DNA of 64,000 nt from Escherichia phage JEP6: the sequence record MT764206.1; one strand, given 5' to 3'. Below, piece after piece: positions 2,259 to 63,429 of this stretch (position 1 is the first letter of the stretch; every line of letters starts with the position of its first letter). The position numbers and the translations under genes are program-made. The notes beneath the pieces were generated by a model. The model was not told where the DNA came from and searched no databases. It saw only the letters and a program-made list of their open reading frames with translations.

Positions 2259-2280
2259 CTTTGTGCAATCTTTGGAAAAT

Positions 2281-2304
2281 AAAAAAGGACTCCCGAAGGA
2301 GTCC
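2281..2304 (-). terminator. rho-independent terminator
   Basis: Hairpin GGACTCC-TTCG-GGAGTCC followed by T6 on minus strand. Confidence 0.7.
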
Positions 2305-2309
2305 TCAAC

Positions 2310-2731: not shown

Positions 2732-2980
2732 TTACTTCAGTGTTACCACAAAGTGACGAACTGCTTTTCGTGCAGCAGAAGCCAGAGGCTTAGCATATTT
2801 AAGTTCATCTTTTTCCTGAAGCTCAGCAGCTAATGCAGTTTGAGCAGGATTCAGATGTTTGAAATAACGCAGGATTTCAAGAGCTTCGGCTTCAACATCA
2901 ATAGATGCGCCATAGTTTTCGTGACCATTATTCCATGCGTTTCGTTGCAGTTCAAGAGCGTGTTGTAGTTGTTTAATCAT
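2732..2980 (-). CDS. rIII: rIII lysis-inhibition accessory protein
   Basis: 82 aa; length, sequence and position before gene 31 match T4 rIII as recalled. Confidence 0.8.
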   Translation of the reverse strand: MIKQLQHALELQRNAWNNGHENYGASIDVEAEALEILRYFKHLNPAQTALAAELQEKDELKYAKPLASAARKAVRHFVVTLK

Positions 2981-3119
2981 TTAAAAATTCTCGTTAGAGA
3001 TTAAAACTCGGTAGTCACGTTCTTCTGAATTTCATCTTCTTTCGACAGATCTCTCAGTTGTAGACTACCACGTAGAATTGTTCGGTTAACTTATTATTCC
3101 GACACCCAATTCATATTAT

Positions 3120-3127
3120 TATTTATA
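3120..3127 (-). promoter_or_regulatory. late promoter TATAAATA upstream of rIII
   Basis: Exact motif on minus strand in 31-rIII intergenic region. Confidence 0.5.
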
Positions 3128-3463
3128 TCACTTATAAAGACACGGAATAGCTTTATAGTGACAAGTGACGAATTTTTGTTTAATTTCTTTTGGCTGCTTA
3201 AGACCCAGAGCTACAAAAGGATGCGGAACGTTTCGAATTTGACCAACTGGCAGAGAAGTCAAATCACCAACTTCGCAGAAACCTTCAGGAACATCAGGAC
3301 CAACAGAGTGAATTACACACAGTTCAGGAACTTCACCTTGAACACGTTTACCGATAATAAGTCCTGATTCTGTAACTTCTTCATCACCGGCTTGTGCAGG
3401 TTCAGAAACTAAAATAACATATTCACCTACAGCACGAATTGGTAGCTGTTGTACTTCAGACAT
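3128..3463 (-). CDS. 31: gp31 co-chaperonin (GroES analogue)
   Basis: 111 aa; recognised gp31 sequence and length. Confidence 0.85.
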
Positions 3464-3519
3464 CGTTTTTCCTTTTTGTTAACAGATGAGTTAATAATAA
3501 CAAATAATTCTTAAAGCAT

Positions 3520-3828
3520 TTATTTACCAATAAATTGAAGCAAATGCTCAACTTTCATACCATTAACGGAAATCAATTTATCAATAGAAAAACCTCGCCA
3601 TGCACCGAGTTCAACATCAAATACCGGAATCATATCAGTAGATTCTTTCCGAGCACATTCAGTCAATTTACCAGTTTGCATGGTTGGCATAAAGTCCGCA
3701 TCACGAGTGCCTTTCATAGTACGAATAGTACCATCAGACTTTTCAAAAACTACGTTTGAAACCCCCATGGACAATTTAGTTTTCAAAATTTCACGAATTG
3801 CTACTTTTTGTTCAGTTGTCAGTTTCAT
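3520..3828 (-). CDS. hypothetical protein (31.1-like)
   Basis: 102-aa ORF. Confidence 0.5.
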   Translation of the reverse strand: MKLTTEQKVAIREILKTKLSMGVSNVVFEKSDGTIRTMKGTRDADFMPTMQTGKLTECARKESTDMIPVFDVELGAWRGFSIDKLISVNGMKVEHLLQFIGK

Positions 3829-4065
3829 TTATTTACCTATTACAGTTTTAATATGAGTTGTTCCACGTTCTTTAAGAGTGGAAAGCAATTTTTGGCATTT
3901 TTCTAAATCAGATTTCCAACTATACGGCCTATCAATGCAAACCCATTCTGACTTATAATACTGTTTCCATTTAGAGAAAAAATATTTCTTATACTCTACA
4001 GCAAATGAAATGTTCTCGTTAGAATAAGAACTAATTGCTGTGAGCTGTACCAAACGAAATTTCAT
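3829..4065 (-). CDS. hypothetical protein
   Basis: 78-aa ORF, 1-nt coupling to cd. Confidence 0.45.
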   Translation of the reverse strand: MKFRLVQLTAISSYSNENISFAVEYKKYFFSKWKQYYKSEWVCIDRPYSWKSDLEKCQKLLSTLKERGTTHIKTVIGK

Positions 4066-4646
4066 TATTCACCACAGAATTCGTTGATATTTTCCCAGTT
4101 TAACTTATTCAAGTTTTTCTTAGGAACATTAAACACTTCAATACCCGCATTTCGCAGAATATCATCCCAGCCAGGTTTATTTTTATCGTATGTTTCGCAA
4201 TAAACCAGCTTTTTAATTCCAGATTGAGCTATTGCTTTTGCACAATCTGGGCAAGGAGAAAGTGTTACATACATAGTAGCACCTTCAATTGAAGAACCGT
4301 TTCGTGCAGCAAACAAAATCGCATTTAGTTCAGCATGAATTTCATTTTTAGACGACCATTCAGAGTGAGCACTACGATGTTCTTTCGCCAAGACAAAACG
4401 ATCAGTTGAACCAAATGATACGCATTCAGGCTTATGACCTTGAATGATAGTATGTTTAGGCTTATTCAACAACCAACCTTGCTCAGCAGCATAATCACAG
4501 CAGTTCACTCCCCCTGCGGGTGAACCATTATACCCAGTAGAAATAATACGTCCATTCTTTTCAATTACTGCTCCTACCTTCCAGGAGCAACATTTTGATT
4601 CCTGCGATACTAAATATGCAATTTGAAGTACTGTACTCGCTTTCAT
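4065..4646 (-). CDS. cd: dCMP deaminase
   Basis: 193 aa; HAE...PCPDC zinc-binding deaminase motifs. Confidence 0.9.
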   Translation of the reverse strand: MKASTVLQIAYLVSQESKCCSWKVGAVIEKNGRIISTGYNGSPAGGVNCCDYAAEQGWLLNKPKHTIIQGHKPECVSFGSTDRFVLAKEHRSAHSEWSSKNEIHAELNAILFAARNGSSIEGATMYVTLSPCPDCAKAIAQSGIKKLVYCETYDKNKPGWDDILRNAGIEVFNVPKKNLNKLNWENINEFCGE

Positions 4647-4981
4647 TTCATAATCACCAGATAAGCAGATTTAGCAGTTTCAACACGATAAATTTCGTGA
4701 CGAAGTTTAGTTATACTTTTAATAACAGAACTAATTATATTCTGCCCGTCTTTAAAGCGGTTTTTCTTATCAATAAAAACTGCGCCAGTCATCTTTTTGT
4801 GAAGCTCAACTGGATACTTCGTCACAATAATAGCATCATACACAGAAGGATGAATACTATTCACCAGAGTATCATTCATTAAAGTTATTCTAATGAACTT
4901 TGCTGTTTCAGAATCAAGCGCTCTATGATCACCAGTATCATTTTCAAGACAATTATCAATTATATCAGTTAAATTCATCAT
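4643..4981 (-). CDS. hypothetical protein
   Basis: 112-aa ORF. Confidence 0.5.
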   Translation of the reverse strand: MMNLTDIIDNCLENDTGDHRALDSETAKFIRITLMNDTLVNSIHPSVYDAIIVTKYPVELHKKMTGAVFIDKKNRFKDGQNIISSVIKSITKLRHEIYRVETAKSAYLVIMK

Positions 4982-5214
4982 AGTACGCCATACACCCTTT
5001 GTGCTTCAACTAATCCATCAAAATCCAGTTTAAGATGCGATATTTGATCGCCATCACCTGGATTCACAATTACTAATACTGAACGAGGAGTTTCGGTAAT
5101 AACACGAACCGATGTTTCAGGAAATCGTTCAGAAACCTTATTTACTAATTCCTGTGCAAATAGTTTAACTTTTTCTTGGAATTCTTTAACAGTAATTGGT
5201 TTTTCACTTAGCAT
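4978..5214 (-). CDS. hypothetical protein
   Basis: 78-aa ORF. Confidence 0.5.
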   Translation of the reverse strand: MLSEKPITVKEFQEKVKLFAQELVNKVSERFPETSVRVITETPRSVLVIVNPGDGDQISHLKLDFDGLVEAQRVYGVL

Positions 5215-5735
5215 GTTGATCCCAGCTCCTTACTTTCAACGTTTTTAACTAATTTGACAGAAACTAATTCAGCATCTTGAGTAATCATTACCGGACCTTC
5301 TTCATACTCTTCAAGATATTCTAGAGCTTTCTTTTTAGCTTCTTCCTTCGTATCAGTTTGAGCATAGATATAAAACATACAACCAGTAATACCTACTACT
5401 TTCCACTTAATTTCTTTATCAGCTTTAATTTCAAATTTACTGACAGAATCATCTTTTTGAACTTCTTCGAAAAAAGAATATTCTAACATATAAGCAATTG
5501 AAAATAACGGGCTATCTTTATAGGATTCGCCCATTACATCAATAGCTTTATACCAGCAGTCATCAATTTTGCGTTTAATGCTAATAACATTCTTTGCAGG
5601 GTCAATTTTTACTTTAAATGAATTTTCCCCAATAAACTGGGAAATTCGTTTATTAGCCCCGCAAGTTTCATTAAAAATATCTTTATATCCAGTTTTAAAG
5701 CGATAAACCTTATCTTCTTCAAACCATTCGCTCAT
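5208..5735 (-). CDS. hypothetical protein
   Basis: 175-aa ORF with early promoter upstream. Confidence 0.5.
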   Translation of the reverse strand: MSEWFEEDKVYRFKTGYKDIFNETCGANKRISQFIGENSFKVKIDPAKNVISIKRKIDDCWYKAIDVMGESYKDSPLFSIAYMLEYSFFEEVQKDDSVSKFEIKADKEIKWKVVGITGCMFYIYAQTDTKEEAKKKALEYLEEYEEGPVMITQDAELVSVKLVKNVESKELGSTC

Positions 5736-5762
5736 TTCAATTTCCTCATTTGTTTTGGTAGA

Positions 5763-5797
5763 GCTATAATATCACAACTCTACCGTAAAGTAAACTA
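5763..5797 (-). promoter_or_regulatory. early promoter
   Basis: GTTTAC -35 and TATAAT-like -10. Confidence 0.5.
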
Positions 5798-6103
5798 TTA
5801 AATCGCTTTGAATTCCGCAGTTTGAGATTCAAAGCGAATATCGCCTTTGATGACTAGCTCAGCATCAAGACCGAATACAACAATGATATGCGCGGAACCT
5901 GGATACAACGTGATGGCAACAGAATCCACCTGGTCTGGAAGCAAAGTATTCAATACATGAGTCACTTGAGCGTGGATTCGAAGCTCAGCTGCGTTATCAA
6001 GTTTTTCAAACATATTATTAGCGATAATTTGACTAAACACTACTTCTACGATTTTAGAGTAAGTCGGAAACATATTTACCTCACATAATTTTCTTCGAGC
6101 CAA
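5798..6103 (-). CDS. hypothetical protein
   Basis: 101-aa ORF. Confidence 0.5.
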   Translation of the reverse strand: MARRKLCEVNMFPTYSKIVEVVFSQIIANNMFEKLDNAAELRIHAQVTHVLNTLLPDQVDSVAITLYPGSAHIIVVFGLDAELVIKGDIRFESQTAEFKAI

Positions 6104-6137
6104 TTAATAATAGTCCAAGTTTCATGGTGCCAAGCCA

Positions 6138-7345
<1,208 letters not shown>

Positions 7346-7573
7346 TTATTTTTTCTCAACCAATGATTGAATATAATCATGTAGGTCTTTAGATGCTTTA
7401 CCCCACTTATTTTGATATTCATTTTTGAGATTAGCACGTGATTGAGCTAATAAAACATCATTAGTTGGAGGTAAAGATTCTAATCGCTGAATCTGGCGTC
7501 CATAAATCATTGCAGCCATCTCGGATTCATAAATCAATCCTTTGAGATGTTCAAATTGATGCCATGAAATCAT
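7346..7573 (-). CDS. hypothetical protein
   Basis: 75-aa ORF. Confidence 0.5.
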   Translation of the reverse strand: MISWHQFEHLKGLIYESEMAAMIYGRQIQRLESLPPTNDVLLAQSRANLKNEYQNKWGKASKDLHDYIQSLVEKK

Positions 7574-7869
7574 TTACATTTATCCTCTTTTAACTCTTGA
7601 CGATAATAACATATCATAGTTTTCTGGTCATGTACATATCGTTTTACATCATTAAGCCAAATACGAAATTCCTGAGAATCTTCAAATGGCATACCGACCC
7701 AAGCTTTACCATCGATAACTTTAACTTGCCAAGATAGTTTAGCTTCATCATATGACTTTATTTGTACAGGCCAATTAGGATGAACTGTTTCTTTCTTTAC
7801 TTCTAGAGGCTTTGTCGAACAACCAACTAGAAGACCAATAGATAATATTACTGCTGATAGTTTAATCAT
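7570..7869 (-). CDS. putative lipoprotein
   Basis: N-terminal signal peptide ending in lipobox-like LLVGC. Confidence 0.5.
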   Translation of the reverse strand: MIKLSAVILSIGLLVGCSTKPLEVKKETVHPNWPVQIKSYDEAKLSWQVKVIDGKAWVGMPFEDSQEFRIWLNDVKRYVHDQKTMICYYRQELKEDKCK

Positions 7870-8219
7870 TTAGAAAGGTCCTGGATGTCTTCTGCGAACT
7901 TGTTGAAGGAGTTGTTGATTTGTTTTTCAACCAATCCTGGCTTATGAGCCACCACATCCGCCTTCTTTGCGTCTTTGCGCAGTTTTTCATTTTCACGCTC
8001 AATAGCAGCAATTGCCTCACGATTTTTATTATTCATCGCATCAATATAATTATACTGAATTCGCAAATTATTTAATGCTAAGGCGTTTTCATTGGACGTT
8101 TTTGTAATTTCTACAACAGACGTTTCTAATCTTTCTACCTTATTTTTTAAAATAATAGATGTTCCGCCAAATGCTATTACAAGTAATAGCAATCCAGCTG
8201 TAAAATTACTTACATGCAT
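7866..8219 (-). CDS. membrane-anchored coiled-coil protein
   Basis: N-terminal hydrophobic helix followed by charged heptad-like region. Confidence 0.5.
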   Translation of the reverse strand: MHVSNFTAGLLLLVIAFGGTSIILKNKVERLETSVVEITKTSNENALALNNLRIQYNYIDAMNNKNREAIAAIERENEKLRKDAKKADVVAHKPGLVEKQINNSFNKFAEDIQDLSK

Positions 8220-8713
8220 AAAGTTTTAATAACCTCTACAATATCGTCTTGAGAAAGACCGTTAATTAAAATATGATGTTCAGCCGGAGATTTAGAAATT
8301 TTAAAGCATGCCTCAACATCTTCTGCCATATCCGATGCACTACGATTTGGATTACTAACCCCAAGGCGGTGTTTTCCAGTCAAAGGATTAACGATGATGT
8401 AGCATTTGCAATTATTGATATGAACATTAGGTTGAGTCTGATTAATGAACACTTCACAATCATATTTCGCAAGCTGATTTTCTAAAAAGACTTTCATCTC
8501 TTCAACCGCATCAGGAAGCATATCACGGGCTTGCTCAAGACGACGATTTCGATATTCTTTAATGGTCGTTTTCCGCTTGACTTGCTTTGCTAAATCTTTC
8601 TTAAGATCGGTGATATATCCAACTCGACGATTTCCTTTGAATACAGAAATCCCATCTGTAGTATCACCGTATGCTTCAACGACCATTTCAGTAGTAATAA
8701 GTTGTAAATCCAT
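8210..8713 (-). CDS. alc: Alc-like protein (host transcription shutoff on cytosine DNA)
   Basis: 167 aa from second Met; length and position between pseT cluster and rnlA match T4 alc. Confidence 0.6.
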   Translation of the reverse strand: MDLQLITTEMVVEAYGDTTDGISVFKGNRRVGYITDLKKDLAKQVKRKTTIKEYRNRRLEQARDMLPDAVEEMKVFLENQLAKYDCEVFINQTQPNVHINNCKCYIIVNPLTGKHRLGVSNPNRSASDMAEDVEACFKISKSPAEHHILINGLSQDDIVEVIKTLCM

Positions 8714-8741
8714 CATAAAGTCCTCATGTTATGTCAGTAAG

Positions 8742-8776
8742 TCTACTATAACACAACACGAGGGACTTGTAAACAG
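8742..8776 (-). promoter_or_regulatory. early promoter upstream of alc
   Basis: GTTTACA -35 and TATAGTAG -10 region. Confidence 0.5.
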
Positions 8777-8777
8777 C

Positions 8778-10365
<1,588 letters not shown>

Positions 10366-10392
10366 AATAAAATGGGCCTTGCGGCCCACTCC

Positions 10393-11571
10393 TTAAAAGT
10401 ATTTTTTAAAACTCATCATAACTTTATCATCAACATCATTATCAATCTGTGCAACAAGGTAAGATGACAGTTCTACTTCTTGCGGCGCGGATTGAACATT
10501 ATCAGAATTAAGGTATTCACGAATCCAAGGATATGGATGTTTAACCGGAGCATCGGTAATTGGGCATGGAAGACCACACTGTTTCATACGAGATACAGTT
10601 AAGTAATCAATAAAGCTCCACATGCTATTTGTATTTAATCCAGGAACATCACCATCTTTAAATAAATGAACCGCCCAGTCTTTTTCTTGGCGGTTAACTT
10701 CCATGAAAATATCAACTGCTTCTTGTTCACACTCTTGAGCAATTTTAACCCATTCATCACCATCAGTGCCAAGTTGAAGTTGACGAATAATATATTGGGT
10801 GCCTTTAAGGTGAAGTTGCTCATCACGAGCAATGAACTTCATAATCTTGGCATTACCTTCCATGATTTCCATGTTCTTATGGAAGTTAAAGGTACATGCG
10901 AAAGATACATAAAAACGAATAGCTTCCAATGCGTTGATTACGTGCAGGCAGAGGTAAAGAGATTTCATTAGTGCTCGTTTAGCTTCGGCTTCTTGTTTAA
11001 TAGCTCGATTTAAACGAAAAACAGCATCAGGAGATTCTTTAGCTAGTTCTGTAAATTCTTTAGCATTTTCCCATTCACGGGTTTTAGTCAGAACATCATC
11101 ATAATAGCGACCGATAGATTCAGCACGTTTCATAATATCTTCATCTAATACAATCTCATCAAATACCTTTGACGGATCAGTATAAAGATTTCGCATGATA
11201 TGGGTATATGAACGGCTGTGAATAGTTTCACTAAAAGTCCATGTAGCAACCCATGTATCAAGACTTGGGTCTGAAATTAATGACATAAGTACAGCAGATG
11301 GCGCACGACCCTGAATGCTATCTAGAAGTGATTGATACTTCAGATTATTAGTAAAAATATCTTGCTGATATTGAGGAAGCTTGTTAAATTGTGCAGCATC
11401 CATCATTAAGTTTACTTCTTCAGGACGCCAGAAAAATGATAAAGATTTCTCAATAAGTTCTTCAAATACTCTATGCCGTTGAATATCATATCGAGCTAAA
11501 CCCAATCCAGAACCAAAAAACATCGGCTCAGTCAAAATATTAACAGGGGATGTATTAAAAACTGTACTCAT
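10393..11571 (-). CDS. nrdB: ribonucleotide reductase small subunit (uninterrupted)
   Basis: 392-aa continuous ORF with recognisable NrdB sequence; no intron. Confidence 0.9.
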   Translation of the reverse strand: MSTVFNTSPVNILTEPMFFGSGLGLARYDIQRHRVFEELIEKSLSFFWRPEEVNLMMDAAQFNKLPQYQQDIFTNNLKYQSLLDSIQGRAPSAVLMSLISDPSLDTWVATWTFSETIHSRSYTHIMRNLYTDPSKVFDEIVLDEDIMKRAESIGRYYDDVLTKTREWENAKEFTELAKESPDAVFRLNRAIKQEAEAKRALMKSLYLCLHVINALEAIRFYVSFACTFNFHKNMEIMEGNAKIMKFIARDEQLHLKGTQYIIRQLQLGTDGDEWVKIAQECEQEAVDIFMEVNRQEKDWAVHLFKDGDVPGLNTNSMWSFIDYLTVSRMKQCGLPCPITDAPVKHPYPWIREYLNSDNVQSAPQEVELSSYLVAQIDNDVDDKVMMSFKKYF

Positions 11572-12209
11572 TTAGAATCCTTAAATTTACATTTATCATA
11601 ATGCCATCTTAGAGCATTGCCTTTATTAACTTTCTTGCCACAATGCGGACAAGGCGGATACTCTATACTTTGCTTAGTTCTCAAAGAAATCAAATCACGA
11701 GTTTCTTTAGTATGAGGAACATCTCTTGTCGGAGAGATTGTACCATACATTGGATTAAGCACGCCGACTTTAGCAGCAGCTATATTCTTTTTAGCTTCTT
11801 CGGTTTTAGGTTTTCTCATGCGAGCTAAATGCTCTTTGGTAAATTTCCTTCCTTTAAGAGCTCTACTTATCTTTTCCCTGGTTTCTATAGAAACTTCACG
11901 TCCTATAGCAGCTTCAGATAAACGTCGTCTACCTAATTCGTATAGTTGAGAAGAAATTTTATATGAGCGATTTTTACCAGTCAAGCACATTAAACCAAAA
12001 GCTTTCTTTAATCCTGGGGTGTCATATATTTTGCATAAAAGCCAATGAGCTATAAAATGCTCTCTACCTGTTAATTCAACTAAATTTTCTTTATCATCAG
12101 AACCTCCCATGCATCTAGGGATTATATGATGAGTCTCTTTATATCCTAATAAAGGTTCCCGAGCCTGAGCTCGGGAAATTAGGTCGTTATAGATTTTTTG
12201 ATAATTCAT
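11568..12209 (-). CDS. mobE: HNH homing endonuclease, Mob family
   Basis: HHIIPRCMGGSDDKENLV HNH motif; position between nrdA and nrdB. Confidence 0.75.
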   Translation of the reverse strand: MNYQKIYNDLISRAQAREPLLGYKETHHIIPRCMGGSDDKENLVELTGREHFIAHWLLCKIYDTPGLKKAFGLMCLTGKNRSYKISSQLYELGRRRLSEAAIGREVSIETREKISRALKGRKFTKEHLARMRKPKTEEAKKNIAAAKVGVLNPMYGTISPTRDVPHTKETRDLISLRTKQSIEYPPCPHCGKKVNKGNALRWHYDKCKFKDSK

Positions 12210-14473
12210 TACAATTTACACGCTGCACAATCGTCGGCTTTTGGAGTTTCTATTTCATAATCATCAGTACCGGAACCATCGCGGGTATTATGATAATAGA
12301 AATTTTTAATGCCATAATACCATCCGTATAGCATATCATCAATCATTATTGACATTGGAACCTTTCCTTTTGGAAAAATCTGCGGGTCATAATATGTATT
12401 TGCTGAAGCTGATTGACATACCCATTTAAGCATAATAGCTACTTGCGTAAGATAAGGTTTATTACCTTTCTTAGCTAATTTCCACGTATAATCATAGAGG
12501 TCTATGTTATGCTCAATATTGGGCACGACTTGATTAAAGGAACCCTCTTTTGATTCTTTAACAGAGACTGGTCCACGTGGAGGCTCGATACCGTTTGTAC
12601 TGTTAGAAACTTGGGAAGATGACTCACATGGCATAAGTGCTGATAATGTGCTATTACGGATGCCAAAGAGCTTAAGGTCTTCCCGCAGCGACGACCAGTC
12701 ACAAACGTATTTTGGAGCTGCGATTTGGTCAATCTTTTTATTGTACCAGTCGATAGGTAATTCGCCTCGAGACCAACGAGTGTCTGAATAATATTCGCAA
12801 GGTCCTTTTTCTTTGGCGAGCTTAATGGATGCTTTAATGAGTCCATACTGTAGTCTCTCAAATAGTTCATGTGTTAAATCGTTAGCATCTTCATAAGAAG
12901 CAAAGTTACTTGCCAGCCAAGCTGCATAGTTGGTAACACCTACACCGAGGTTACGACGCTTTTTAGCTTTTTCTGCTTCAGGAACTGGATATCCTTGGTA
13001 GTCCAAAAGATTATCAAGAGCGCGAACTTGAACTTCTGCTAATTCATTGATTTTATCTTGGTCTTGCCAATCGAAGTTATCCAACACAAATGCGCTAAGG
13101 GTACACAATCCAATTTCAGCATCAGGGCTATTCACATCATTTGTTGGAATAGCAATTTCACAGCACAAGTTACTCTGACGAATAGGTGCCTTTTCACGAA
13201 TAAACGGAGTATAGTTATTCGTATTATCAATGAACTGTACATAAATCCTTGCTGTCCCTGAACGTTCAGTCATGAGCAATTCAAATAGTTCACGGGCTTT
13301 AATACGCTTTTTACGAATATTAGGGTCTTTTTCTGCTGCTTCGTATAATTCACGGAAACGGTCTTGGTCTTTAAAATAAGAATAATAAAGCTCGCCACCC
13401 ATTTCGTGTGGACTGAACAAAGTAATGTAGTCGTTCTTTCCAAAACGTTCCATCATCAAATCATTCAGTTGAACGCCATAATCCATATGACGGATACGGT
13501 TTTCTTCTACGCCTTTGTTATTTTTCAAAACGAGAAGATTTTCAACTTCCAAATGCCAAATAGGATAATAAGCAGTAGCAGCGCCGCCACGAATTCCACC
13601 CTGTGAGCATGATTTAACAGCAGTCTGAAAATGTTTCCAAAAAGGAATAACACCAGTATGGCGTACTTCACCCATGCCAATCTTAGAACCTTCGGCACGA
13701 ATCATACCAACGTTAATACCAATTCCAGCGCGTTTAGAGATATATTCAACAATTGAAGCGGAAGCCTTATTGATAGACTTCAGCGAATCACCTGCTTCAA
13801 TAACAACGCATGAACTAAACTGTCGAGTTGGAGTACGACATCCAGCCATAATAGGAGTTGGCAATGAAATCTGTCGAGTGGATACTGCTTCATAAAAACG
13901 GATAACATGTTTTAATCTATCAACAGGTTCATCTTGATGCAGTGCCATTCCAATAGTCATAAATGCAAACTGCGGAGTTTCATAAATTTGACCAGTGGTT
14001 TTATCTTTAACTAGATATTTTTCTTTTAATTGCATCGCCCCGGAATAAGTAAATTCCATATCCCGCTCGTGCTTAATTTTTGATTCTAAAAATGTAATTT
14101 CTTCTGCTGAATATTTTGACAACAATTCAGGGTCATATTTACCTTCATTTACACAATAAGAAATATGGTCAATAAATGAACGTGGTTCATACTGCCCATA
14201 AACATGCTTACGAAGAGCGAACATTAAACAGCGAGCGGCTACATATTGGTAATCAGGCTCTTCAACCGAAATAGAATTCGCAGCAGCCTTAATGACAATA
14301 GTCTGAATATCATCAGTTGTCATTCCATCACGGAGATAAGATTTAATATTTTCATATAATTCATAAGGATCTACTGATGTTCCTTCAGCTGCCCAAGATA
14401 AAACTTTAATAATTTTTTGCGGGTCAAAGCTCTGAGAAACACCACTACTTTTGATAACATTAATTAATTGCAT
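12209..14473 (-). CDS. nrdA: ribonucleotide reductase large subunit
   Basis: 754 aa; recognisable class I RNR alpha sequence. Confidence 0.9.
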   Translation of the reverse strand: MQLINVIKSSGVSQSFDPQKIIKVLSWAAEGTSVDPYELYENIKSYLRDGMTTDDIQTIVIKAAANSISVEEPDYQYVAARCLMFALRKHVYGQYEPRSFIDHISYCVNEGKYDPELLSKYSAEEITFLESKIKHERDMEFTYSGAMQLKEKYLVKDKTTGQIYETPQFAFMTIGMALHQDEPVDRLKHVIRFYEAVSTRQISLPTPIMAGCRTPTRQFSSCVVIEAGDSLKSINKASASIVEYISKRAGIGINVGMIRAEGSKIGMGEVRHTGVIPFWKHFQTAVKSCSQGGIRGGAATAYYPIWHLEVENLLVLKNNKGVEENRIRHMDYGVQLNDLMMERFGKNDYITLFSPHEMGGELYYSYFKDQDRFRELYEAAEKDPNIRKKRIKARELFELLMTERSGTARIYVQFIDNTNNYTPFIREKAPIRQSNLCCEIAIPTNDVNSPDAEIGLCTLSAFVLDNFDWQDQDKINELAEVQVRALDNLLDYQGYPVPEAEKAKKRRNLGVGVTNYAAWLASNFASYEDANDLTHELFERLQYGLIKASIKLAKEKGPCEYYSDTRWSRGELPIDWYNKKIDQIAAPKYVCDWSSLREDLKLFGIRNSTLSALMPCESSSQVSNSTNGIEPPRGPVSVKESKEGSFNQVVPNIEHNIDLYDYTWKLAKKGNKPYLTQVAIMLKWVCQSASANTYYDPQIFPKGKVPMSIMIDDMLYGWYYGIKNFYYHNTRDGSGTDDYEIETPKADDCAACKL

Positions 14474-14789
14474 AAGTCCTCAACTTGAAAATCGTCTTTA
14501 AACAATCGGTTAACTATATGAGCTATTATATCACCATGACACGGCTTTGGTTTACATGTGCATCCTAGCCTCATTCCACGTAAAGGCTCTAAATGTGCTT
14601 TAGTTATTTCTCCGGATTTAATTCGACGTATAAAATCTTTTTTGAATAATTCAATGGCAGCCTCCCGGCTGCCAGCATCTTTACCGACGTAAAGACTCTA
14701 AATGTACCACGGTGAATATTAACATCAAAGTCGGATTTGTATTTATTCACTACCCGGCATAGACGGCCCGCGCGGTTGTAGGTGTTCAT
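14464..14789 (-). pseudogene. frame-disrupted ORF (candidate DUF4326-like) between td and nrdA
   Basis: 61-aa ORF (14604..14789) plus a second frame running 14464..14700 ending 7 nt past the nrdA ATG and containing a CxCxPxPCHGD motif but no start codon before 14578; 17-bp near-perfect direct repeat at 14688-14704 and 14579-14595. Confidence 0.35.
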
Positions 14790-15006
14790 ATTGTTCTTCC
14801 GTTAAAACAGTAATATCATAGTAACAGTCAGAAGAAGTTTTAACTGTGGAAATTTTATTATCAAAATACTCACGAGTCATTTTATGAGTATAATATTTTT
14901 TGCCATAAATGATAATAGGCTGATTTGGTCCTGGAACTTCTAACTCACTTGGATTAGGAAGTGTAAAAAGAACTACACCAGAAGTATCTTTAAATCGTAA
15001 AATCAT
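14743..15006 (-). CDS. hypothetical protein
   Basis: ORF track 14743..15018; start at ATG preceded by GAGGA. Confidence 0.5.
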
Positions 15007-15029
15007 ATATCCTCGCAATTAAATTAAAA

Positions 15030-15341
15030 TTATACCGCCATCTTTCCTTTAATTGGCGGGTGAGATACATAGTTGTTAAGAACAAAATTATGCGGCTTTG
15101 CGAATTGACTCAACCAAAATACCTGCGATTCTGTGTCCCATTCATCAAATTCATCTGGAAATTTTAATTGCAATTCGCATAAATCCATAGGTTCACGACG
15201 TAAAATTTCTTTACATTGTTCTACGTGATTCATATAGATATGAGTATTACCGCCAGAAAATATCAAATCTCCTGGAATAAGATTACACATCTTAGCTACA
15301 ATATGAACTAATGCAGCATATGATGCAATGTTGAACGGTAG
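15030..15341 (-). CDS. td: thymidylate synthase, exon 2
   Basis: Begins CTACCGTTC (LPFNIASYA) immediately after intron-terminal ATG; C-terminal TS sequence. Confidence 0.85.
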   Translation of the reverse strand, partial: LPFNIASYAALVHIVAKMCNLIPGDLIFSGGNTHIYMNHVEQCKEILRREPMDLCELQLKFPDEFDEWDTESQVFWLSQFAKPHNFVLNNYVSHPPIKGKMAV

Positions 15342-16357
15342 CATTATGTTCAGATAAGGTCGTTAATCTTACCCCGGAATTATATCCAGCTGCATGTCAC
15401 CATGCAGATCAGACTATATCTCCAACTTGTTAAAGCAAGTTGTCTATCGTTTCGAGTCACTTGACCCTACTCCCCAAAGGGATAGTCGTTAGGCATTTAT
15501 GTAGAACCAATTCCATTTATCAGATTTTACACGATAAGTAACTAATCCAGACGAAATTTTAAAATGTCTAGCTGCATCTGCTGCACAATCAAAAATAACC
15601 CCATCACATGAAATCTTTTTAATATTACTAGGCTTTTTACCTTTCATCTTTTCTGATATTTTAGATTTAGTTATGTCTGAATGCTTATGATTAAAGAATG
15701 AATTATTTTCACCTGAACGATTTCTGCATTTACTACAAGTATAAGCAGAAGTTTGTATGCGAACACCGCACTTACAAAACTTATGGGTTTCTGGATTCCA
15801 ACGCCCGTTTTTACTTCCGGGTTTACTGTAAAGAGCTTTCCGACCATCAGGTCCAAGTTTAAGCATCTTAGCTTTAACAGTTTCAGAACGTTTCTTAATA
15901 ATTTCTTCTTTTAATGGATGCGTAGAACATGTATCACCAAACGTTGCGTCAGCAATATTGTATCCATTAATTTTAGAATTAAGCTCTTTAATCCAAAAAT
16001 TTTCTCGTTCAATAATCAAATCTTTCTCATATGGAATTTCTTCCAAAATAGAACATTCAAACACATTACCATGTTTGTTAAAAGACCTCTGAAGCTTTAT
16101 AGAAGAATGGCATCCTTTTTCTAAATCTTTAAAATGCCTCTTCCATCTCTTTTCAAAATCTTTAGCACTTCCTACATATACTTTATTGTTTAAAGTATTT
16201 TTAATCTGATAAATTCCGCTTTTCATAAATACCTCTTTAAATATAGAAGTATTTATTAAAGGGCAGTCCTACAATTTAGCACGGGATTGTCTACTAGAGA
16301 GGTTCCCCGTTTAGATAGATTACAAGTATAAGTCACCTTATACTCAGGCCTCAATTA
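15342..16357 (-). mobile_element. group I self-splicing intron in td (1016 nt)
   Basis: Exon 1 ends GTTTTCTTGGGT followed by TAATTGAGGCCTGAGTATAAGGTGACTTATAC; intron ends ...ATG before exon 2; length 1016 nt matches the T4 td intron. Confidence 0.85.
15489..16226 (-). CDS. I-TevI: GIY-YIG homing endonuclease I-TevI (intron-encoded)
   Basis: 245 aa; GIYQIKN...KVYVGSA GIY-YIG motif; wholly inside td intron. Confidence 0.9.
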   Translation of the reverse strand: MKSGIYQIKNTLNNKVYVGSAKDFEKRWKRHFKDLEKGCHSSIKLQRSFNKHGNVFECSILEEIPYEKDLIIERENFWIKELNSKINGYNIADATFGDTCSTHPLKEEIIKKRSETVKAKMLKLGPDGRKALYSKPGSKNGRWNPETHKFCKCGVRIQTSAYTCSKCRNRSGENNSFFNHKHSDITKSKISEKMKGKKPSNIKKISCDGVIFDCAADAARHFKISSGLVTYRVKSDKWNWFYINA

Positions 16358-17729
<1,372 letters not shown>

Positions 17730-17739
17730 ATTATTTTCC

Positions 17740-17982
17740 TTAAACAGACTTTTTCACAATTTTCCAATCAGCTTTAAACTGCTCGACATCAGAATGGTAA
17801 ATCCAGAATCCTGCGCTTTCTCCATCCTCATAAAGAGGACATCCATCACATTCATCTTCCCATCCCATATCACGTAAAAGATGTTCAGCTTTTTCAACAA
17901 GTTCAGAATCTTTACCGATGATATTAAAATACCATTTACCTCTAACTTCTGAATCTTTGATGCTCTGGCGTTGTAATCTCAT
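17740..17982 (-). CDS. hypothetical protein
   Basis: 80-aa ORF downstream of early promoter. Confidence 0.5.
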   Translation of the reverse strand: MRLQRQSIKDSEVRGKWYFNIIGKDSELVEKAEHLLRDMGWEDECDGCPLYEDGESAGFWIYHSDVEQFKADWKIVKKSV

Positions 17983-18005
17983 TTTATTCTCCTCAGTAGT
18001 TGATA

Positions 18006-18042
18006 GGGTAATAGTATCACACTACTACCCTGCTGTAAACAA
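18006..18042 (-). promoter_or_regulatory. early promoter
   Basis: GTTTACA -35, TGATACTATTA -10 region. Confidence 0.5.
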
Positions 18043-18336
18043 TTATTTTTGAATTTTATCGAGCCACTTACCAAGCTTAATCATTTCTTTAGTAGCCTTT
18101 TCCATACTTCTGAACTTAACTAATAGAGGATAGGTATCGACACCCATAACTAAACTGGTTACAAGACTGTGTTCACCCACAAGCCATAACGAATACGTTT
18201 GAATATCGAGTCCGTAATTTCTGTCTTTATGGACCCGTACACCCATCACTTCAAATTTCTCACTAGCTTTTTCTACCGCATCCAGGAAATCATCTTTAGT
18301 CATATTAGGCCTTAAAAGTTTTTCGCAAAAGTTCAA
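18043..18336 (-). CDS. hypothetical protein
   Basis: 97-aa ORF. Confidence 0.5.
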   Translation of the reverse strand: MNFCEKLLRPNMTKDDFLDAVEKASEKFEVMGVRVHKDRNYGLDIQTYSLWLVGEHSLVTSLVMGVDTYPLLVKFRSMEKATKEMIKLGKWLDKIQK

Positions 18337-18691
18337 TGATTTCGTCTACATTATTTTCGTCAACAATGCAGTGAATTTTTGTTACGCCAGAAACTATACC
18401 TTCATTAGCGGATTGAGGCTTTTCTAAAGTTACCTCAGTAAAGTATTTGAATTCTTCAGAGTAAATCTCAAAATACGTCTCAAGTGGGCCACCCGCCATG
18501 TATTCAGTACCATCTTCCATAGTTACACGTACCACACATTCACCAGCACAATCATCACTTTCCATTTCATCTACAACAAAACTAGGTCCGTGCTTCTCTA
18601 TTAAATTTAGCATCATTACATTGCAACGGCACTCGTTAGCAAAGTCATTTTTAAATAAAGGGTTAATGATATAAGTTTTTCCAACTTCCAC
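18305..18691 (-). CDS. hypothetical protein
   Basis: 128-aa ORF. Confidence 0.5.
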   Translation of the reverse strand: MEVGKTYIINPLFKNDFANECRCNVMMLNLIEKHGPSFVVDEMESDDCAGECVVRVTMEDGTEYMAGGPLETYFEIYSEEFKYFTEVTLEKPQSANEGIVSGVTKIHCIVDENNVDEIIELLRKTFKA

Positions 18692-18737
18692 TTTGATTTC
18701 CTCATTTTAACGGGGCTATCAAATAGCCCCTTGATAA

Positions 18738-18965
18738 TTATTGTTCAATCAGTCCCATGTAAAATTCTGCGTCTTCAGAATCCATGCCATCGCAATATTC
18801 ATTAGCCATAAAGAGGGTGAGGTCTTCAAGAGGACCTTTAATAACGATTTGAATACTCCAAAACTTAGAATCTTGCACGCTTGTGATACTAAGTTCAGGA
18901 TAACGATTACGAATAATCTCTTCAATATATTCAAAATCAACGATGTCAATATCAACTTTAGCCAT
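18738..18965 (-). CDS. hypothetical protein
   Basis: ORF track 18738..19028; start moved to MAKVD because an early promoter occupies 19003..19040. Confidence 0.45.
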
Positions 18966-19002
18966 ATTATTTTCCTCTTTAATCATCAGCAGTATTGCCG
19001 AT

Positions 19003-19040
19003 AGTTGTATAGTACCATGGAAGGACAAGGATGTAAACAG
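19003..19040 (-). promoter_or_regulatory. early promoter immediately downstream of gene 32 terminator
   Basis: GTTTACA ... TGGTACTATACAA. Confidence 0.55.
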
Positions 19041-19063
19041 TTTTGTGAAAAAATTTTTGAAAT

Positions 19064-19088
19064 AAAAAAGGGGACCTCTAGGGTCCCC
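19064..19088 (-). terminator. rho-independent terminator after gene 32
   Basis: Hairpin GGGGACC-CTAGA-GGTCCCC then T6. Confidence 0.7.
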
Positions 19089-19110
19089 AATTAATTAGTA
19101 ATATAATCTA

Positions 19111-20016
19111 TTAAAGGTCATTCAAAAGGTCATCCAGGTCCGTGTCATCAGCACTAGATGAACTGCCAGAGCTTGAGCTCATAAAATCATCTTCAGTTTT
19201 TGTTTTGAAGTCATCAACATTGAATGCATCCAAATCATCAGCAACTTTATCAGCTTTCTTAGCGGCAGTCGCTGCGGCACCACCCATAGCAGCAGTTCCC
19301 ATAACTTGACTGAACTTAGTGCTCAGTTCTTCAAACGATTTGAATTTATCTTTAGAAGTCATTTCAGAAAGGTCAACCATTTGTTCGAACAGTTCTTTCT
19401 GGAAAGATTCATCATCAATGTTTGGAATCGCAGATTGATTCAGGAATTTAGATTCGTCGTAGTTACTAAAACCAGAAACTTGTTTAACTTTCAGTACAAA
19501 GTTAGCACCTTCCCACGGACAAGTTACATCAACCGGAGTTTCACCCATTTCAACATCAACTGCAATCATTGCATTGATTTTATCCCAGATTTTCTTACCG
19601 AAACGGTATTTAAATACTTTACCTTCATTTTCTGGAGCAGCTGGGTCTTTTACTACAAGAATGTTAGCCCAGTAAGAAGTTTTACGTTTAACAAGACCGT
19701 ACTCTTTATTGTCAGTGTTGTACAAATCATTTTTACTGATGTACTGACATACTGGACAAGAATCGTAATCACCGTGGGTAGATGAACATGTTTCAATATA
19801 CCATTTACCATTTTTCTTGAAACCGTGATTTACAAGAATTGCGAATGGTGCTTGTTCATCATTTTTAGACGGAAGAAAACGAATTACTGCTTGACCGTTA
19901 CCCGCATTATCGAGTTTCAGTTTCCACTCGCCTTTATCTTCAGAAGAAAAACCTTTATTGCCATTCAGTTTAGCCATTTGTGCAGCAAGTTCAGCAGTAG
20001 ATTTACGTTTAAACAT
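19111..20016 (-). CDS. 32: single-stranded DNA-binding protein gp32
   Basis: 301 aa; recognised sequence incl. acidic Ser/Asp-rich C-terminus. Confidence 0.9.
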
Positions 20017-58754: not shown

Positions 58755-58955
58755 ATGGTACAAAAATTAATGGCACTTGTTAATGCCATCAAAGGTAATA
58801 AAAAGCGTATAGCTTTTACTATTTCTGCTATGATAGGAATTTTACTTTGGAATTTTGTTTTATCGCCAGTTGCTATTGCTCATGGCGTTAGTATTCCAGT
58901 AGTTACTCTTGATACATTCGTAGATTTAGCATTTGCTTTAGTTGGGTTAATTTAA
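58755..58955 (+). CDS. small two-helix membrane protein on opposite strand
   Basis: 66-aa ORF; AAAGGAGG 5 nt upstream of ATG; stop overlaps gene 61 stop (convergent). Confidence 0.5.
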   Translation: MVQKLMALVNAIKGNKKRIAFTISAMIGILLWNFVLSPVAIAHGVSIPVVTLDTFVDLAFALVGLI

Positions 58956-59980
58956 ATCTTAGCATATTTAGATAACCGCATTTTAGCCATCAACCCCTGT
59001 GCAATATTATTTTTCATATATTCCATAATTTGTTCAGGGGTTGCACCTTCCTTTCTAATCATATCATTAACATCTTTTGATTTCCAGGGAGATTTATCCC
59101 AAAACATAACCCTTTCTCCTGCATCAACTAATTTAGTCATTCGTTTGATAGTGTCAGGATGACGAGGTTCATTATCTAAAACCCACACACGCCTATCTTT
59201 AAATGGAACAACTTCTAGGTCTAATTGACCACCCGTAATAGCTATACCATTTTCAATAAAAAGTGAATCTATAGGTCCTTCTAGAACATATACATCACCA
59301 TCTTTAACCCGTTCGACTCCATAGATTTTTGTTGCTTCAGGATAAGCTTTGATGGTGATATATTTTTGAGGAGCATCTTTCTTTAATGCACGTCCTTGAA
59401 ACGACTCAGCTTTTCCATTAGCATTATAAATTGGAATAACAAGACGAGGCTCAGAAATTTCCTTTTTATATGTTCCCGGTGCTATGCTATTAACCAATTT
59501 AGGCCATTCAGTTGTAAACCAAAGATATTTCCATTTATCCTTTGGAATACAACGAGCTTTTACATATTTTATAATTGGATGGTCTTCCGCCAGTTTATCT
59601 AATCTAACACATGACGGAAGAGATTTAATTATTTTCTTCTCAGGTTGTTTAGGAAGTTCTTTAGGTTTTTCTACTGGACGACTTTTACCTTTTTCTTTTC
59701 TTATTTCAAAGATATACTCACGATATAAATCAGGTTCAAACTCCTTTAAATATATTCCGATTGGTGCATGATAGTTACAGTTATAACAATGAATATTTCC
59801 TTCATTATTATCACCATAATACCATCCACGAGCTTTATTCTGGTCGGTTTTTGAATCTCCACAAACAGGGCATCTAAACCGCAATTTAAAAGTTGAACTA
59901 TTATTTACTTGTGTGAATTTAGGTAAATGAGCTAATGCACGGTATGCAAACTCATTATCAATCCAAGGTATTGATGACAT
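58952..59980 (-). CDS. 61: DNA primase gp61
   Basis: 342 aa; zinc-ribbon CPVCGDS...CYNC. Confidence 0.9.
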   Translation of the reverse strand: MSSIPWIDNEFAYRALAHLPKFTQVNNSSTFKLRFRCPVCGDSKTDQNKARGWYYGDNNEGNIHCYNCNYHAPIGIYLKEFEPDLYREYIFEIRKEKGKSRPVEKPKELPKQPEKKIIKSLPSCVRLDKLAEDHPIIKYVKARCIPKDKWKYLWFTTEWPKLVNSIAPGTYKKEISEPRLVIPIYNANGKAESFQGRALKKDAPQKYITIKAYPEATKIYGVERVKDGDVYVLEGPIDSLFIENGIAITGGQLDLEVVPFKDRRVWVLDNEPRHPDTIKRMTKLVDAGERVMFWDKSPWKSKDVNDMIRKEGATPEQIMEYMKNNIAQGLMAKMRLSKYAKI

Positions 59981-59982
59981 TT

Positions 59983-60147
59983 TTACTCTTCTTTTTCTTT
60001 AGATTCCTCTTTTTTCTTTTTAGGAATCTGTTCAGGACCTTTATTTACTACAGCACCTGATGTTGTTCCAGTAGAGATATTTTCAGGATTACCACCTGAA
60101 TCTCCAGCGACCATATCTTCTTTGATAAATTCTTTAAATGTTTTCAT
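59983..60147 (-). CDS. small charged hypothetical protein
   Basis: about 54-aa ORF by manual translation. Confidence 0.35.
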   Translation of the reverse strand: MKTFKEFIKEDMVAGDSGGNPENISTGTTSGAVVNKGPEQIPKKKKEESKEKEE

Positions 60148-60148
60148 A

Positions 60149-60775
60149 TTAACCTCTATTCATAAAAGCATTAAAAATTTGGTCATCAATAGAAACATTT
60201 ACTTTAGACTGTTTTTCGGATGGTAATTCATATCCACATATTACAATTTTGTGATCAATATCAAAATACACAGAAGCAATATGATTAATGCTGTTTTCAG
60301 TAAAGTCTAAATCAACATCAATATCTTTTTGACCAAAGCCCAAAGGATAAATAATGCGAGTAATTCGATTATCTTTAACAAAGATTCCACCGACATACTC
60401 TGTACTGCGTTTAAAGTCTACACGCCGACGAAATGAAAAATATTCAGGCTCTTTATGAGCTCGGCTTATAGGGCACAACGAATAACTAGAATAAGAGATG
60501 TCAAATCCTACGCCTTCAATATGAACTAAATTGTCATGATTAAACCAATTATAATCATATGCCAAGTCCATTAGATTGTCATATGTGAAAGGCACCGGAT
60601 TAACATCATTGGTCACAAGCATATAATTAGCAACTGCTATAATTTCATTATTTTTAACGAATACAAACCGTGATTGATGCGAATGGCCTGGACCTGCGTT
60701 TTCACGATTAATGATATAACACTGGGCACCTTTATATTTGTACGTGTCTTTACACTTGTGCATTTGATAAAGCAT
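60149..60775 (-). CDS. hypothetical protein
   Basis: 208-aa ORF. Confidence 0.5.
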   Translation of the reverse strand: MLYQMHKCKDTYKYKGAQCYIINRENAGPGHSHQSRFVFVKNNEIIAVANYMLVTNDVNPVPFTYDNLMDLAYDYNWFNHDNLVHIEGVGFDISYSSYSLCPISRAHKEPEYFSFRRRVDFKRSTEYVGGIFVKDNRITRIIYPLGFGQKDIDVDLDFTENSINHIASVYFDIDHKIVICGYELPSEKQSKVNVSIDDQIFNAFMNRG

Positions 60776-61068
60776 TATTCACCTACCACTTCAGCGATGA
60801 TATTTTTATTATTAAAGTTTTTATCGCAATACAGAACATAATTATACTGCATTACACCACCAGACTTAAGCTGTTTTTGCACTTCAGCTTTCATTTCAGG
60901 ACGATCACGCTCAACGATATTCATAATATCTGCTTCAATTTGAGTTTCAACTTCAGTCTGATCCGCAGTCATAGACCATTCACACAAATCTTTATCATAA
61001 CCTGCCATAGCAGGCTGAGCAGCACAAGAAGCTAAAGCAAAAATTGCAGCAAAAACAAATTTTTTCAT
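60775..61068 (-). CDS. sp: secreted signal-peptide protein, Spackle-like (superinfection exclusion)
   Basis: 97 aa from MKKFVFAAIF with cleavable signal peptide ...AQPAMA; position matches T4 61.3. Confidence 0.55.
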   Translation of the reverse strand: MKKFVFAAIFALASCAAQPAMAGYDKDLCEWSMTADQTEVETQIEADIMNIVERDRPEMKAEVQKQLKSGGVMQYNYVLYCDKNFNNKNIIAEVVGE

Positions 61069-61129
61069 GATTAATCTCCTCAGTAGTTTATGTTTATATA
61101 GTATCTCAATTTCCAATAAAAGTAAACAG

Positions 61130-61387
61130 TTATTTTAAAACTTTTGCGTAATCACATGTTACAAACTGTTTCTCTAGCTTAACGATCTTACGAAAATACC
61201 TTTTACACTGACGAATCTGCCGCTTCGTAGGGCGAACAGCAAACTTAATAAATTCCACTCGACCAAATGGAGGACTTTCTTCTGCTGGAATATCTAATAC
61301 TAATTCCCACGTATCTGCAATAAGTGCTTTGAATTGAGTATTTTTCCTAACGCTATACGGAGTAGGTTTAAATAAAACGATATGCAT
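61130..61387 (-). CDS. hypothetical protein (61.4-like)
   Basis: 85 aa from MHIVLF; ATG 1 nt after dmd stop. Confidence 0.5.
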   Translation of the reverse strand: MHIVLFKPTPYSVRKNTQFKALIADTWELVLDIPAEESPPFGRVEFIKFAVRPTKRQIRQCKRYFRKIVKLEKQFVTCDYAKVLK

Positions 61388-61388
61388 A

Positions 61389-61571
61389 TTATCCTCGGCA
61401 ATCCACTTCACATACCTTCTTGTCATCAATGAAAGCTTTAACTAATGCTTTATTAACTTCAGCATACTGAGTAGTAGCCCATTGAACGTCATCTTTCATC
61501 ATTGTGGTTTCTTTAGTAAACATGCTTTCATTCTTAAACCACCCCATAAAAACTACCTTTACCAATTCCAT
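61389..61571 (-). CDS. dmd: Dmd antitoxin (inhibitor of RnlA/LsoA RNase toxins)
   Basis: 60 aa; sequence MELVKVVFMGWFKNESMF... recognised; early promoter upstream. Confidence 0.7.
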   Translation of the reverse strand: MELVKVVFMGWFKNESMFTKETTMMKDDVQWATTQYAEVNKALVKAFIDDKKVCEVDCRG

Positions 61572-61597
61572 AACAATCTCCCCATTTAACCAACAAG

Positions 61598-61630
61598 ACT
61601 ACTATACCATAGTCTCGTCAGCTTGTAAAC
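61598..61630 (-). promoter_or_regulatory. early promoter for dmd, overlapping 3' end of gene 41
   Basis: GTTTACAAGC ... TGGTATAGTAG. Confidence 0.5.
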
Positions 61631-63057
61631 TAAAATTTTAATTCATTTGCCAAAGCATCTAACTGAGCTCGAGTCGATTCGTTTCTTTGATAGCGATTCT
61701 GTTCAGCCTGAATCTGCTGTGAACCTGCTACCTCACTCACTCCAGTTGGAGTAGAATCTTGTTCAATTTCTACCCATTTCTGATTTCCTTTTTGAACACC
61801 CATCAAAAACTTATTCCATTTGTTTTTATCGCCATATCGTGATTTGATTTGCTTAATGAGTTGTTGTTCAGCAGCTGCTAGCTCCTCGGTTTCAATGACC
61901 GCAAGCATAAAATCAGCTGTTGCTGGAAGACCGGCAGATTCTGCAATATCGCTCATGTTAACATCAGAAGAATCCCAAGCTTGTTTACCAACCTGTGCTG
62001 CAGTCCAAAGAACAGTTTCGGTTTCAACAGCAAGAGCACGTAATTCCTCTGCAATGGCTTTAACAGTTGTGTAACTATTTTCTGAGTAAACTCTAATGCG
62101 GCAAGATTTACAAATACCCAGATAGTCGACAATAATGATTGTTGGAACAAAATTCTTCTTGAGCTTCAATTCGTTTAAAAGTGATCGAAATGTATTAGCG
62201 TCTGCTCCACCAGTAGGATACTGTTTAACGATTAAACGCCCAAGAGTAGATTTCTCACGCCATTTTTCCATTTTTCCTTTATATTCAGCGTAAGAAATAT
62301 GCCCATCATCAATGTCATCAAGAGAAACATCAAGCATATTAGCATCAATACGCTTAGCACAGACTTCTTCTGCCATTTCCATGGAAATGTAAAGAACATT
62401 ATGTCCGAGCTGCAAATAATCTGCTGCCAATGAACACAGACCTAATGACTTACCAACGTTAACGCCAGCCATTAAAACGTTCAGTGTTCCAGTCTCAGCT
62501 CCGCCTTTAGTAATTTTGTTTAGAATTCTGAGTTTAAATGGAACCTTACGAGCTTTATTCATATAAGATAGCCAACGTGCTTCGTAGTCATCCATCCAAT
62601 CATGACCAACGTAGCTATCAAATGAAATTGATAATGCTTGGCGCATGATGTCAGGAATAGCACCTACATCTGGCATTTTCTTATTGCGTTTTTCCGGAGG
62701 AAGCTCAGCATTAGTTTGAATTTCGATTATTTTAGACGTAGCATTAAACATCGCCCTTTGCTGAACATATTTTTCTGTTTCTTTTACTAACCAGCTGTGG
62801 TCTTCCGGAGAATCAGCCAGTTTTGAAATAAGTGTTTTTACACCAGAATATTCTGTTTCAGTAAATGAACTATTTTCTAATGCAACATTTAACGCATTAA
62901 TAGATGGAACACTATGATACTCATTGACATGAGATTTAATTAATTTGAATGTATTTTTAGCTGGACCACTTTCAAAATATTCTGAATCCATATATGGCCA
63001 AACTTTTGAAAAATAAGCTTGATCAAATATGAGATGGGAAAGAATAATTTCTACCAC
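61630..63057 (-). CDS. 41: replicative DNA helicase gp41
   Basis: 475 aa; DnaB-like Walker A. Confidence 0.9.
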   Translation of the reverse strand: MVEIILSHLIFDQAYFSKVWPYMDSEYFESGPAKNTFKLIKSHVNEYHSVPSINALNVALENSSFTETEYSGVKTLISKLADSPEDHSWLVKETEKYVQQRAMFNATSKIIEIQTNAELPPEKRNKKMPDVGAIPDIMRQALSISFDSYVGHDWMDDYEARWLSYMNKARKVPFKLRILNKITKGGAETGTLNVLMAGVNVGKSLGLCSLAADYLQLGHNVLYISMEMAEEVCAKRIDANMLDVSLDDIDDGHISYAEYKGKMEKWREKSTLGRLIVKQYPTGGADANTFRSLLNELKLKKNFVPTIIIVDYLGICKSCRIRVYSENSYTTVKAIAEELRALAVETETVLWTAAQVGKQAWDSSDVNMSDIAESAGLPATADFMLAVIETEELAAAEQQLIKQIKSRYGDKNKWNKFLMGVQKGNQKWVEIEQDSTPTGVSEVAGSQQIQAEQNRYQRNESTRAQLDALANELKF

Positions 63058-63066
63058 ACTTACTCC

Positions 63067-63429
63067 TTAAAAGAATTTAAACTTTTTCTTTGACCTTTTA
63101 TTGAATGCATCTTGTAGTTGCATTGTAATACATTTTTCTACATGAGGAGCTAACTCAGCTTTTCTTTCTTGGTCAAGAACAGCAAAGTCCATTACAACCT
63201 TTCCATCAACCCAATCTAATTTTGTCACATACACAATGTGTGTAGAACCATCTTCTAGTTTAATGACAATCTCCTGGATAACATTTTCCATGGCAGATTT
63301 AATTATCTTAAGAGACTCATTAAAAAGACGTTCTTTTCTTTCTTCTTCCCCCTCCGAAGAGGGGGATTCATCGATAATTTCTAGATCTAAGTCTAAATCA
63401 TCTTTATTCATTAAATTCTTCCATATCAC
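63067..63429 (-). CDS. 40: gp40 head vertex assembly protein
   Basis: 120-aa ORF between uvsX and 41. Confidence 0.6.
   Translation of the reverse strand: MIWKNLMNKDDLDLDLEIIDESPSSEGEEERKERLFNESLKIIKSAMENVIQEIVIKLEDGSTHIVYVTKLDWVDGKVVMDFAVLDQERKAELAPHVEKCITMQLQDAFNKRSKKKFKFF

Follow-up and report, generated by a model that had tools for sequence, protein, structure and literature searches.

The small genes on the minus strand of positions 60775–61571 in this stretch of Escherichia phage JEP6 (sequence record MT764206.1; the whole 64,000 nucleotides that were analysed are referred to hereafter as the window) raise the question of what each of them encodes and of whether they form a counter-defence cluster. 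The original prediction, made from the sequence alone, had recognised the antitoxin Dmd in a 60-aa ORF, had placed a possible TifA-like inhibitor in an 85-aa ORF 1 nt after it, and had seen a resemblance to Spackle in a 97-aa signal-peptide protein, the three together being proposed as a candidate counter-defence cluster. All three ORFs are present in the sequence on the minus strand (61389–61571, 61130–61387 and 60775–61068, respectively), and the homology searches recovered the expected relationships to Dmd, TifA and Spackle.

Sequence comparison places the window within a Tequatrovirus (T4-like) genome. Positions 58901–63100 align with T4 (NC_000866) as one collinear block of 4200 bp, with 97.4% identity and one gap, and the T4 annotation presents the same gene order (41, dmd, 61.4, sp, 61.2, 61.1, and 61). 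In the database, a 1.6-kb stretch of the locus hits 630 phage records, almost all from T4-like phages of Escherichia, Shigella or Yersinia, with best identities of 98–99%; in 331 of these records the match covers 80% or more of the stretch. The annotations found among these matches include “Dmd discriminator of mRNA degradation,” “spackle periplasmic protein,” and “hypothetical protein.” At the protein level, Dmd, TifA, Spackle and AdfA (the product of the gene that follows sp) each lie far above the curated Pfam gathering score. The region is almost certainly the orthologue of the T4 block 41 / dmd-61.4 (tifA) / sp-61.2 (adfA)-61.1 / 61, with a dmd-tifA bicistron and with activities that would follow from this orthology. 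Identity, synteny, conservation of the functional residues and the promoter-like site described below are direct observations of our analysis, and the activities of the cluster proteins in this phage would be those reported in the published experiments on T4 and RB69. The dmd-tifA-spackle(-adfA) cluster is, in this sense, already known, as its genes are orthologues of experimentally characterised T4 genes. The region has been termed the “anti-TA island,” with dmd, tifA and adfA proposed as its markers and further genes of the island as candidates (Srikant, Guegler & Laub, eLife 2022; PMC9391042). As the island has been described experimentally in print, the word “candidate” in the original prediction is outdated.

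The 60-aa product of dmd (61.5 in T4; 61389–61571, minus strand) is an antitoxin mimic according to its Pfam, PHROG and PDB matches and its identity to the T4 protein. It matches PF17587 over residues 1–60 of 60 (E=1.8e-45; 153.5 bits for a cut-off of 27), was assigned to PHROG 2102, and shares 59 of its 60 residues (98%) with T4 Dmd, I22T being the sole difference. The PDB search retrieved 5hy3_B, “Antitoxin Dmd” (E=9.6e-37); the structure of T4 Dmd has been solved in complex with LsoA. Together with the synteny, these matches establish the 60-aa ORF as Dmd. The HEPN RNase toxins RnlA and LsoA are direct targets of T4 Dmd, which inhibits them (PMC8266594), and the 98% identity suggests that the protein encoded here would also bind and neutralise both toxins.

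The 85-aa product of the next gene, tifA (61.4 in T4; 61130–61387, minus strand), is a predicted RNA-binding inhibitor of the toxin ToxN, as indicated by T4 orthology, by its Pfam family and by its conserved residues. The gene is located between dmd and sp, as in T4, and the protein is 96% identical to T4 gp61.4 over all 85 residues, differing by N12S, E82K and I83V. It belongs to the Pfam family DUF7279 (PF23945; E=2.4e-20; 72.7 bits for a cut-off of 24.5), is 100% identical to a protein of Yersinia phage fPS-2, and is present in 675 phage records. Pfam labels the family as DUF7279 only, most database records give “hypothetical protein,” and the PDB search with this sequence yielded no structure of a relative, even with the limit relaxed to E≤1. 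The T4 gene 61.4 has been renamed tifA, and its product neutralises ToxN (PMC9391042; Guegler et al., 2023, PMC10853763), so that the TifA-like nature that had been cautiously suggested for the 85-aa ORF can be affirmed by orthology, synteny and family membership. The TifA proteins of T2, T4, T6 and RB69 all inhibit ToxN, and a single copy of T4 tifA fails against plasmid-borne toxIN (PMC9391042).

The residues on which this activity depends have been mapped experimentally. TifA contacts RNA via a basic C-terminal helix that has P53-T54 as its cap, and the substitutions P53A/T54A and K55A/R56A/R59A abolish both RNA binding and ToxN inhibition (PMC10853763). P53, T54, K55, R56 and R59 are invariant across the TifA proteins of the window, T4 and RB69, and N12S, E82K and I83V all fall outside both the basic helix (residues 53–67) and the loop containing residue 41. 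This residue, in the predicted ToxN-interface loop, tunes potency, Phe being weak and Ser or His stronger (PMC10853763). The TifA of the window carries Phe at position 41, as in T4, and therefore represents a T4-type allele with a modest expected potency. By analogy with the proteins of T2, T4, T6 and RB69, it would bind RNA and neutralise ToxN: the basic C-terminal helix, with its P53-T54 cap and K55, R56 and R59, may bind RNA and ToxN together, trapping this type III toxin in an inactive ribonucleoprotein complex.

The arrangement of dmd and tifA reproduces that of the T4 operon in gene order, in the 1-nt junction and in the position of the upstream early promoter. After the TAA stop codon of dmd (61391–61389) come a single base (61388) and then the tifA ATG at 61387, exactly the 1-nt spacing that had been noted originally, and the same junction is annotated in T4 (20371/20369) and in RB69 (locus positions 1599/1601). 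A GAGGA Shine-Dalgarno sequence for tifA sits within the 3′ end of dmd, and the stop/start junction would permit translational coupling of the two genes. The ORF list also offered a TTG start at 61429, giving 99 aa; it was rejected in favour of the ATG at 61387, which is the start annotated in T4 and follows the Shine-Dalgarno sequence.

Upstream, the helicase gene 41 ends at 61630, an early-type sigma-70 promoter-like site occupies 61629–61601 (minus strand), and dmd starts at 61571, an order that is alike in T4. The site, located between the gene 41 stop and dmd, reads TTTACA-17 nt-TATAGT with an upstream TG and, in a consensus scan, presents 10 of the 12 consensus matches plus an extended -10. 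In T4, dmd and 61.4 have been described as a two-gene operon driven by an early promoter upstream of dmd (PMC9391042), and the position of our site agrees with that of the published promoter. Given the 97% DNA identity to T4, the site just past gene 41 likely drives transcription of dmd and tifA as a bicistron in this phage as well. The same consensus scan found no promoter-like site between the dmd stop and the tifA ATG, and the two genes are probably co-transcribed. A second, weaker promoter-like site (TTTACT-17 nt-TACTAT; 61098–61126, minus strand) was read from the sequence in the 61-nt spacer between tifA and sp. It agrees with 8 of the 12 consensus positions, under the threshold of the scan; further along the same spacer, AGGAG forms the ribosome-binding site of sp. 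A promoter downstream of tifA has been mentioned for T4 (PMC9391042), and the weak site might fulfil this role here. A terminator scan of positions 59900–61750 found none.

The third ORF of the original prediction is sp (61.3 in T4; 60775–61068, minus strand), which encodes Spackle as a 97-aa precursor with a 22-aa signal peptide and a mature form of 75 aa. Its N-terminus, MKKFVFAAIFALASCAAQPAMA|GYD, is that of a typical signal peptide. The resemblance to Spackle turned out to be true orthology: the protein is 97% identical to T4 Sp, matches PF25676 (T4_Spackle; E=4.8e-45; 152.5 bits for a cut-off of 27) over residues 1–96 of 96, and retrieves 6x6o_A from the PDB (E=6e-61). The mature chain of 7cn6_A aligns to residues 23–97, which therefore confirms the boundary of the signal peptide. 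The differences from T4 are I5V and T8A in the signal peptide and K53E in the mature protein; Cys29 and Cys81 are conserved, and the T4 protein (gp61.3; PDB 6X6O, 6XC0, 7CN6, and 7CN7) displays the same 22-aa signal peptide, the same 75-aa mature form and the same Cys29-Cys81 pair, the mature form and its disulfide being supported by published work (PMC7677548). For this gene too, an alternative TTG start in the ORF list (61116, giving 113 aa) was rejected, since the ATG at 61068 is that of the T4 annotation, follows a Shine-Dalgarno sequence and yields the known signal peptide.

In T4, Spackle resides in the periplasm, inhibits the tail lysozyme (the lysozyme domain of the tail-spike protein gp5) and thus acts in superinfection exclusion (PMC7677548). 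The protein of this phage would accordingly be exported, lose its 22-aa signal peptide and inhibit the gp5 tail lysozyme of later T-even phages; it would thus act against other phages in superinfection exclusion, rather than against host defence. The idea of a counter-defence cluster consequently holds for dmd and tifA, which are anti-toxin genes in T4, and does not hold for Spackle.

The actual third anti-toxin gene of the cluster lies just outside the interval considered originally. The sp stop codon overlaps the start of adfA at base 60775 (TAATG), and adfA (61.2 in T4, anti-DarT factor A; 60149–60775, minus strand) encodes a protein of 208 aa that matches PF23813 over its full length (E=4.8e-137; 454.6 bits for a cut-off of 27). 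It is 98% identical to T4 gp61.2, with the substitutions L63P, M103I, I162S and P193S, and 69% identical to the RB69 protein. The R164H substitution enables RB69 AdfA to bind and neutralise the toxin DarT1, and ectopically expressed T4 AdfA has been reported to do likewise (PMC11257639). His165 of the window protein aligns with R164 of RB69, a position at which the DarT1-neutralising alleles likewise have His. The protein thus carries the neutralising His allele and, by orthology, would bind and neutralise this DNA ADP-ribosyltransferase toxin. Deletion of adfA in T4 gives no DarTG1 phenotype, because AdfN (30.3), a NADAR-type DNA ADP-ribosylglycohydrolase on which T-even phages mainly rely against DarTG1, also protects (PMC11257639). 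At the other end of the window, an ORF at 246–704 (minus strand) is 99% identical (151/152) to T4 gp30.3, now AdfN. The two known anti-DarTG1 genes, adfA and the gene for AdfN, are thus both present in the window.

Between adfA and the primase gene 61 lies one further small gene, 61.1 (59983–60147, minus strand), which encodes a conserved 54-aa protein without an assigned role. It is 98% identical to T4 gp61.1, Gly-rich with a Lys/Glu-rich tail, belongs to PHROG 1823 (unknown function) and has no Pfam match. Its motif EDMVAGDSGG...GAVVNKGPEQIP is common to the 92-aa version of RB69. We regard gp61.1 as a plausible candidate member of the anti-TA island.

Comparison with known systems shows how closely the locus follows T4. 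The T4 and window TifA proteins are identical at F41, P53, T54, K55, R56 and R59, the Dmd and TifA pairs differ by point substitutions only, and the departures of the whole cluster from T4 amount to a handful of substitutions. RB69 is more distant. Its TifA, a more potent ToxN inhibitor (PMC10853763), belongs to the same family, adjoins dmd and contains an identical FKFAVRPTKRQIRQ core, but is 57% identical to that of the window, carries His41 instead of Phe41, and ends without the 15-residue C-terminal extension that the window and T4 proteins share. In addition, RB69 has two extra ORFs between gene 41 and dmd, and its 61.4 (tifA) is separated from sp by the superinfection-immunity genes imm.1 and imm (RB69 19011–19689; RB69 locus 1874–2552), whereas in T4 and in the window imm is located elsewhere. 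The interval between genes 41 and 61 therefore behaves as a plastic accessory-gene region between replication genes, in which dmd-tifA and sp-adfA are separable modules.

This modularity bears on the idea that dmd, tifA and sp form together one coordinated counter-defence operon. The genes are close to each other on one strand, and dmd, tifA and adfA each encode an anti-toxin factor, as such an operon would predict. Nevertheless, the demonstrated target of Spackle is the gp5 tail lysozyme of the phage itself and not a host defence, the 61-nt spacer between tifA and sp holds its own promoter-like site and ribosome-binding site, and in RB69 61.4 and sp are split by imm.1 and imm; we therefore consider a single operon of this kind improbable. 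The label of ToxN inhibitor could also be questioned, if this 85-aa member of the TifA family were tuned to another toxin or inactive against ToxN. TifA homologues are known to be specific, those of other E. coli and Pectobacterium phages having failed against every ToxN homologue tested (PMC10853763), and the window allele differs from that of T4 at three positions. In contrast, the TifA proteins of T2, T4 and T6 (>96% mutual identity) and of RB69 (56–57%) neutralise the E. coli ToxN and three related ToxNs, and the window protein is 96% identical to that of T4, with its changes outside the residue-41 loop and the helix 53–67, which makes a mislabelled TifA very unlikely.

That the small ORFs could be chance frames in AT-rich, non-coding phage DNA deserves hardly any credence, even though the ORF list for this AT-rich region contains numerous short frames that overlap, on both strands. 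The proteins are conserved across hundreds of phages, including RB69, where TifA identity falls to just 57%; they have curated Pfam matches, two of them (Dmd and Spackle) have solved structures, and T4 TifA and Dmd have been studied biochemically. This conservation and the published protein work had already refuted a chance origin. Finally, there is a small chance that something new is present in the cluster, either because the allele differences (N12S, E82K and I83V in TifA, I22T in Dmd, and the changes in AdfA) retune specificity toward toxin variants of other hosts, or because gp61.1 is a further anti-toxin factor. The presence of an identical TifA allele in a Yersinia phage makes retuning conceivable. 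The orthologue of the T4 cluster, with an anti-toxin dmd-tifA pair followed by the sp-adfA module, remains our preferred interpretation.

Scans for other types of features were negative. No RNA family was detected anywhere in the window by the Rfam scan at the gathering threshold, and the cluster therefore contains no hidden structured RNA. The PADLOC scan of the five cluster proteins returned zero defence-model matches, as expected from proteins that are anti-defence, not defence.

The remaining window is also Tequatrovirus DNA, including the ligase region, the nrd genes, the tail fibres, rIIB/rIIA and a topoisomerase. In window positions 1–20000, the Rfam scan detected no group I intron, for example at the nrdB-like ORF (10393–11571, minus strand); in the homologous span of T4, nrdB and td are split by introns. 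Aligned in seven pieces, the first 20 kb of the window correspond to some 26 kb of phage ELT1. In the present phage, several introns or homing-endonuclease insertions are probably absent. Between 20001 and 40000, the tail-fibre region (genes 34–38) is the most divergent, with a best database identity of about 94% vs 97–99% elsewhere, which is consistent with host-range mosaicism.

Since the T4-type F41 TifA is weak and T4 can do without AdfA for DarTG1 resistance, how much each gene of the cluster matters in vivo is host-dependent. The F41 allele predicts that this phage, like T4, is restricted by highly expressed toxIN. Beyond correct annotation, the finding matters little; the 85-aa and 208-aa proteins are “hypothetical” in most database records, and labelling them as TifA and AdfA would help to predict which toxin–antitoxin defences this phage may evade, namely RnlAB/LsoAB, ToxIN at chromosomal level, and DarTG1.
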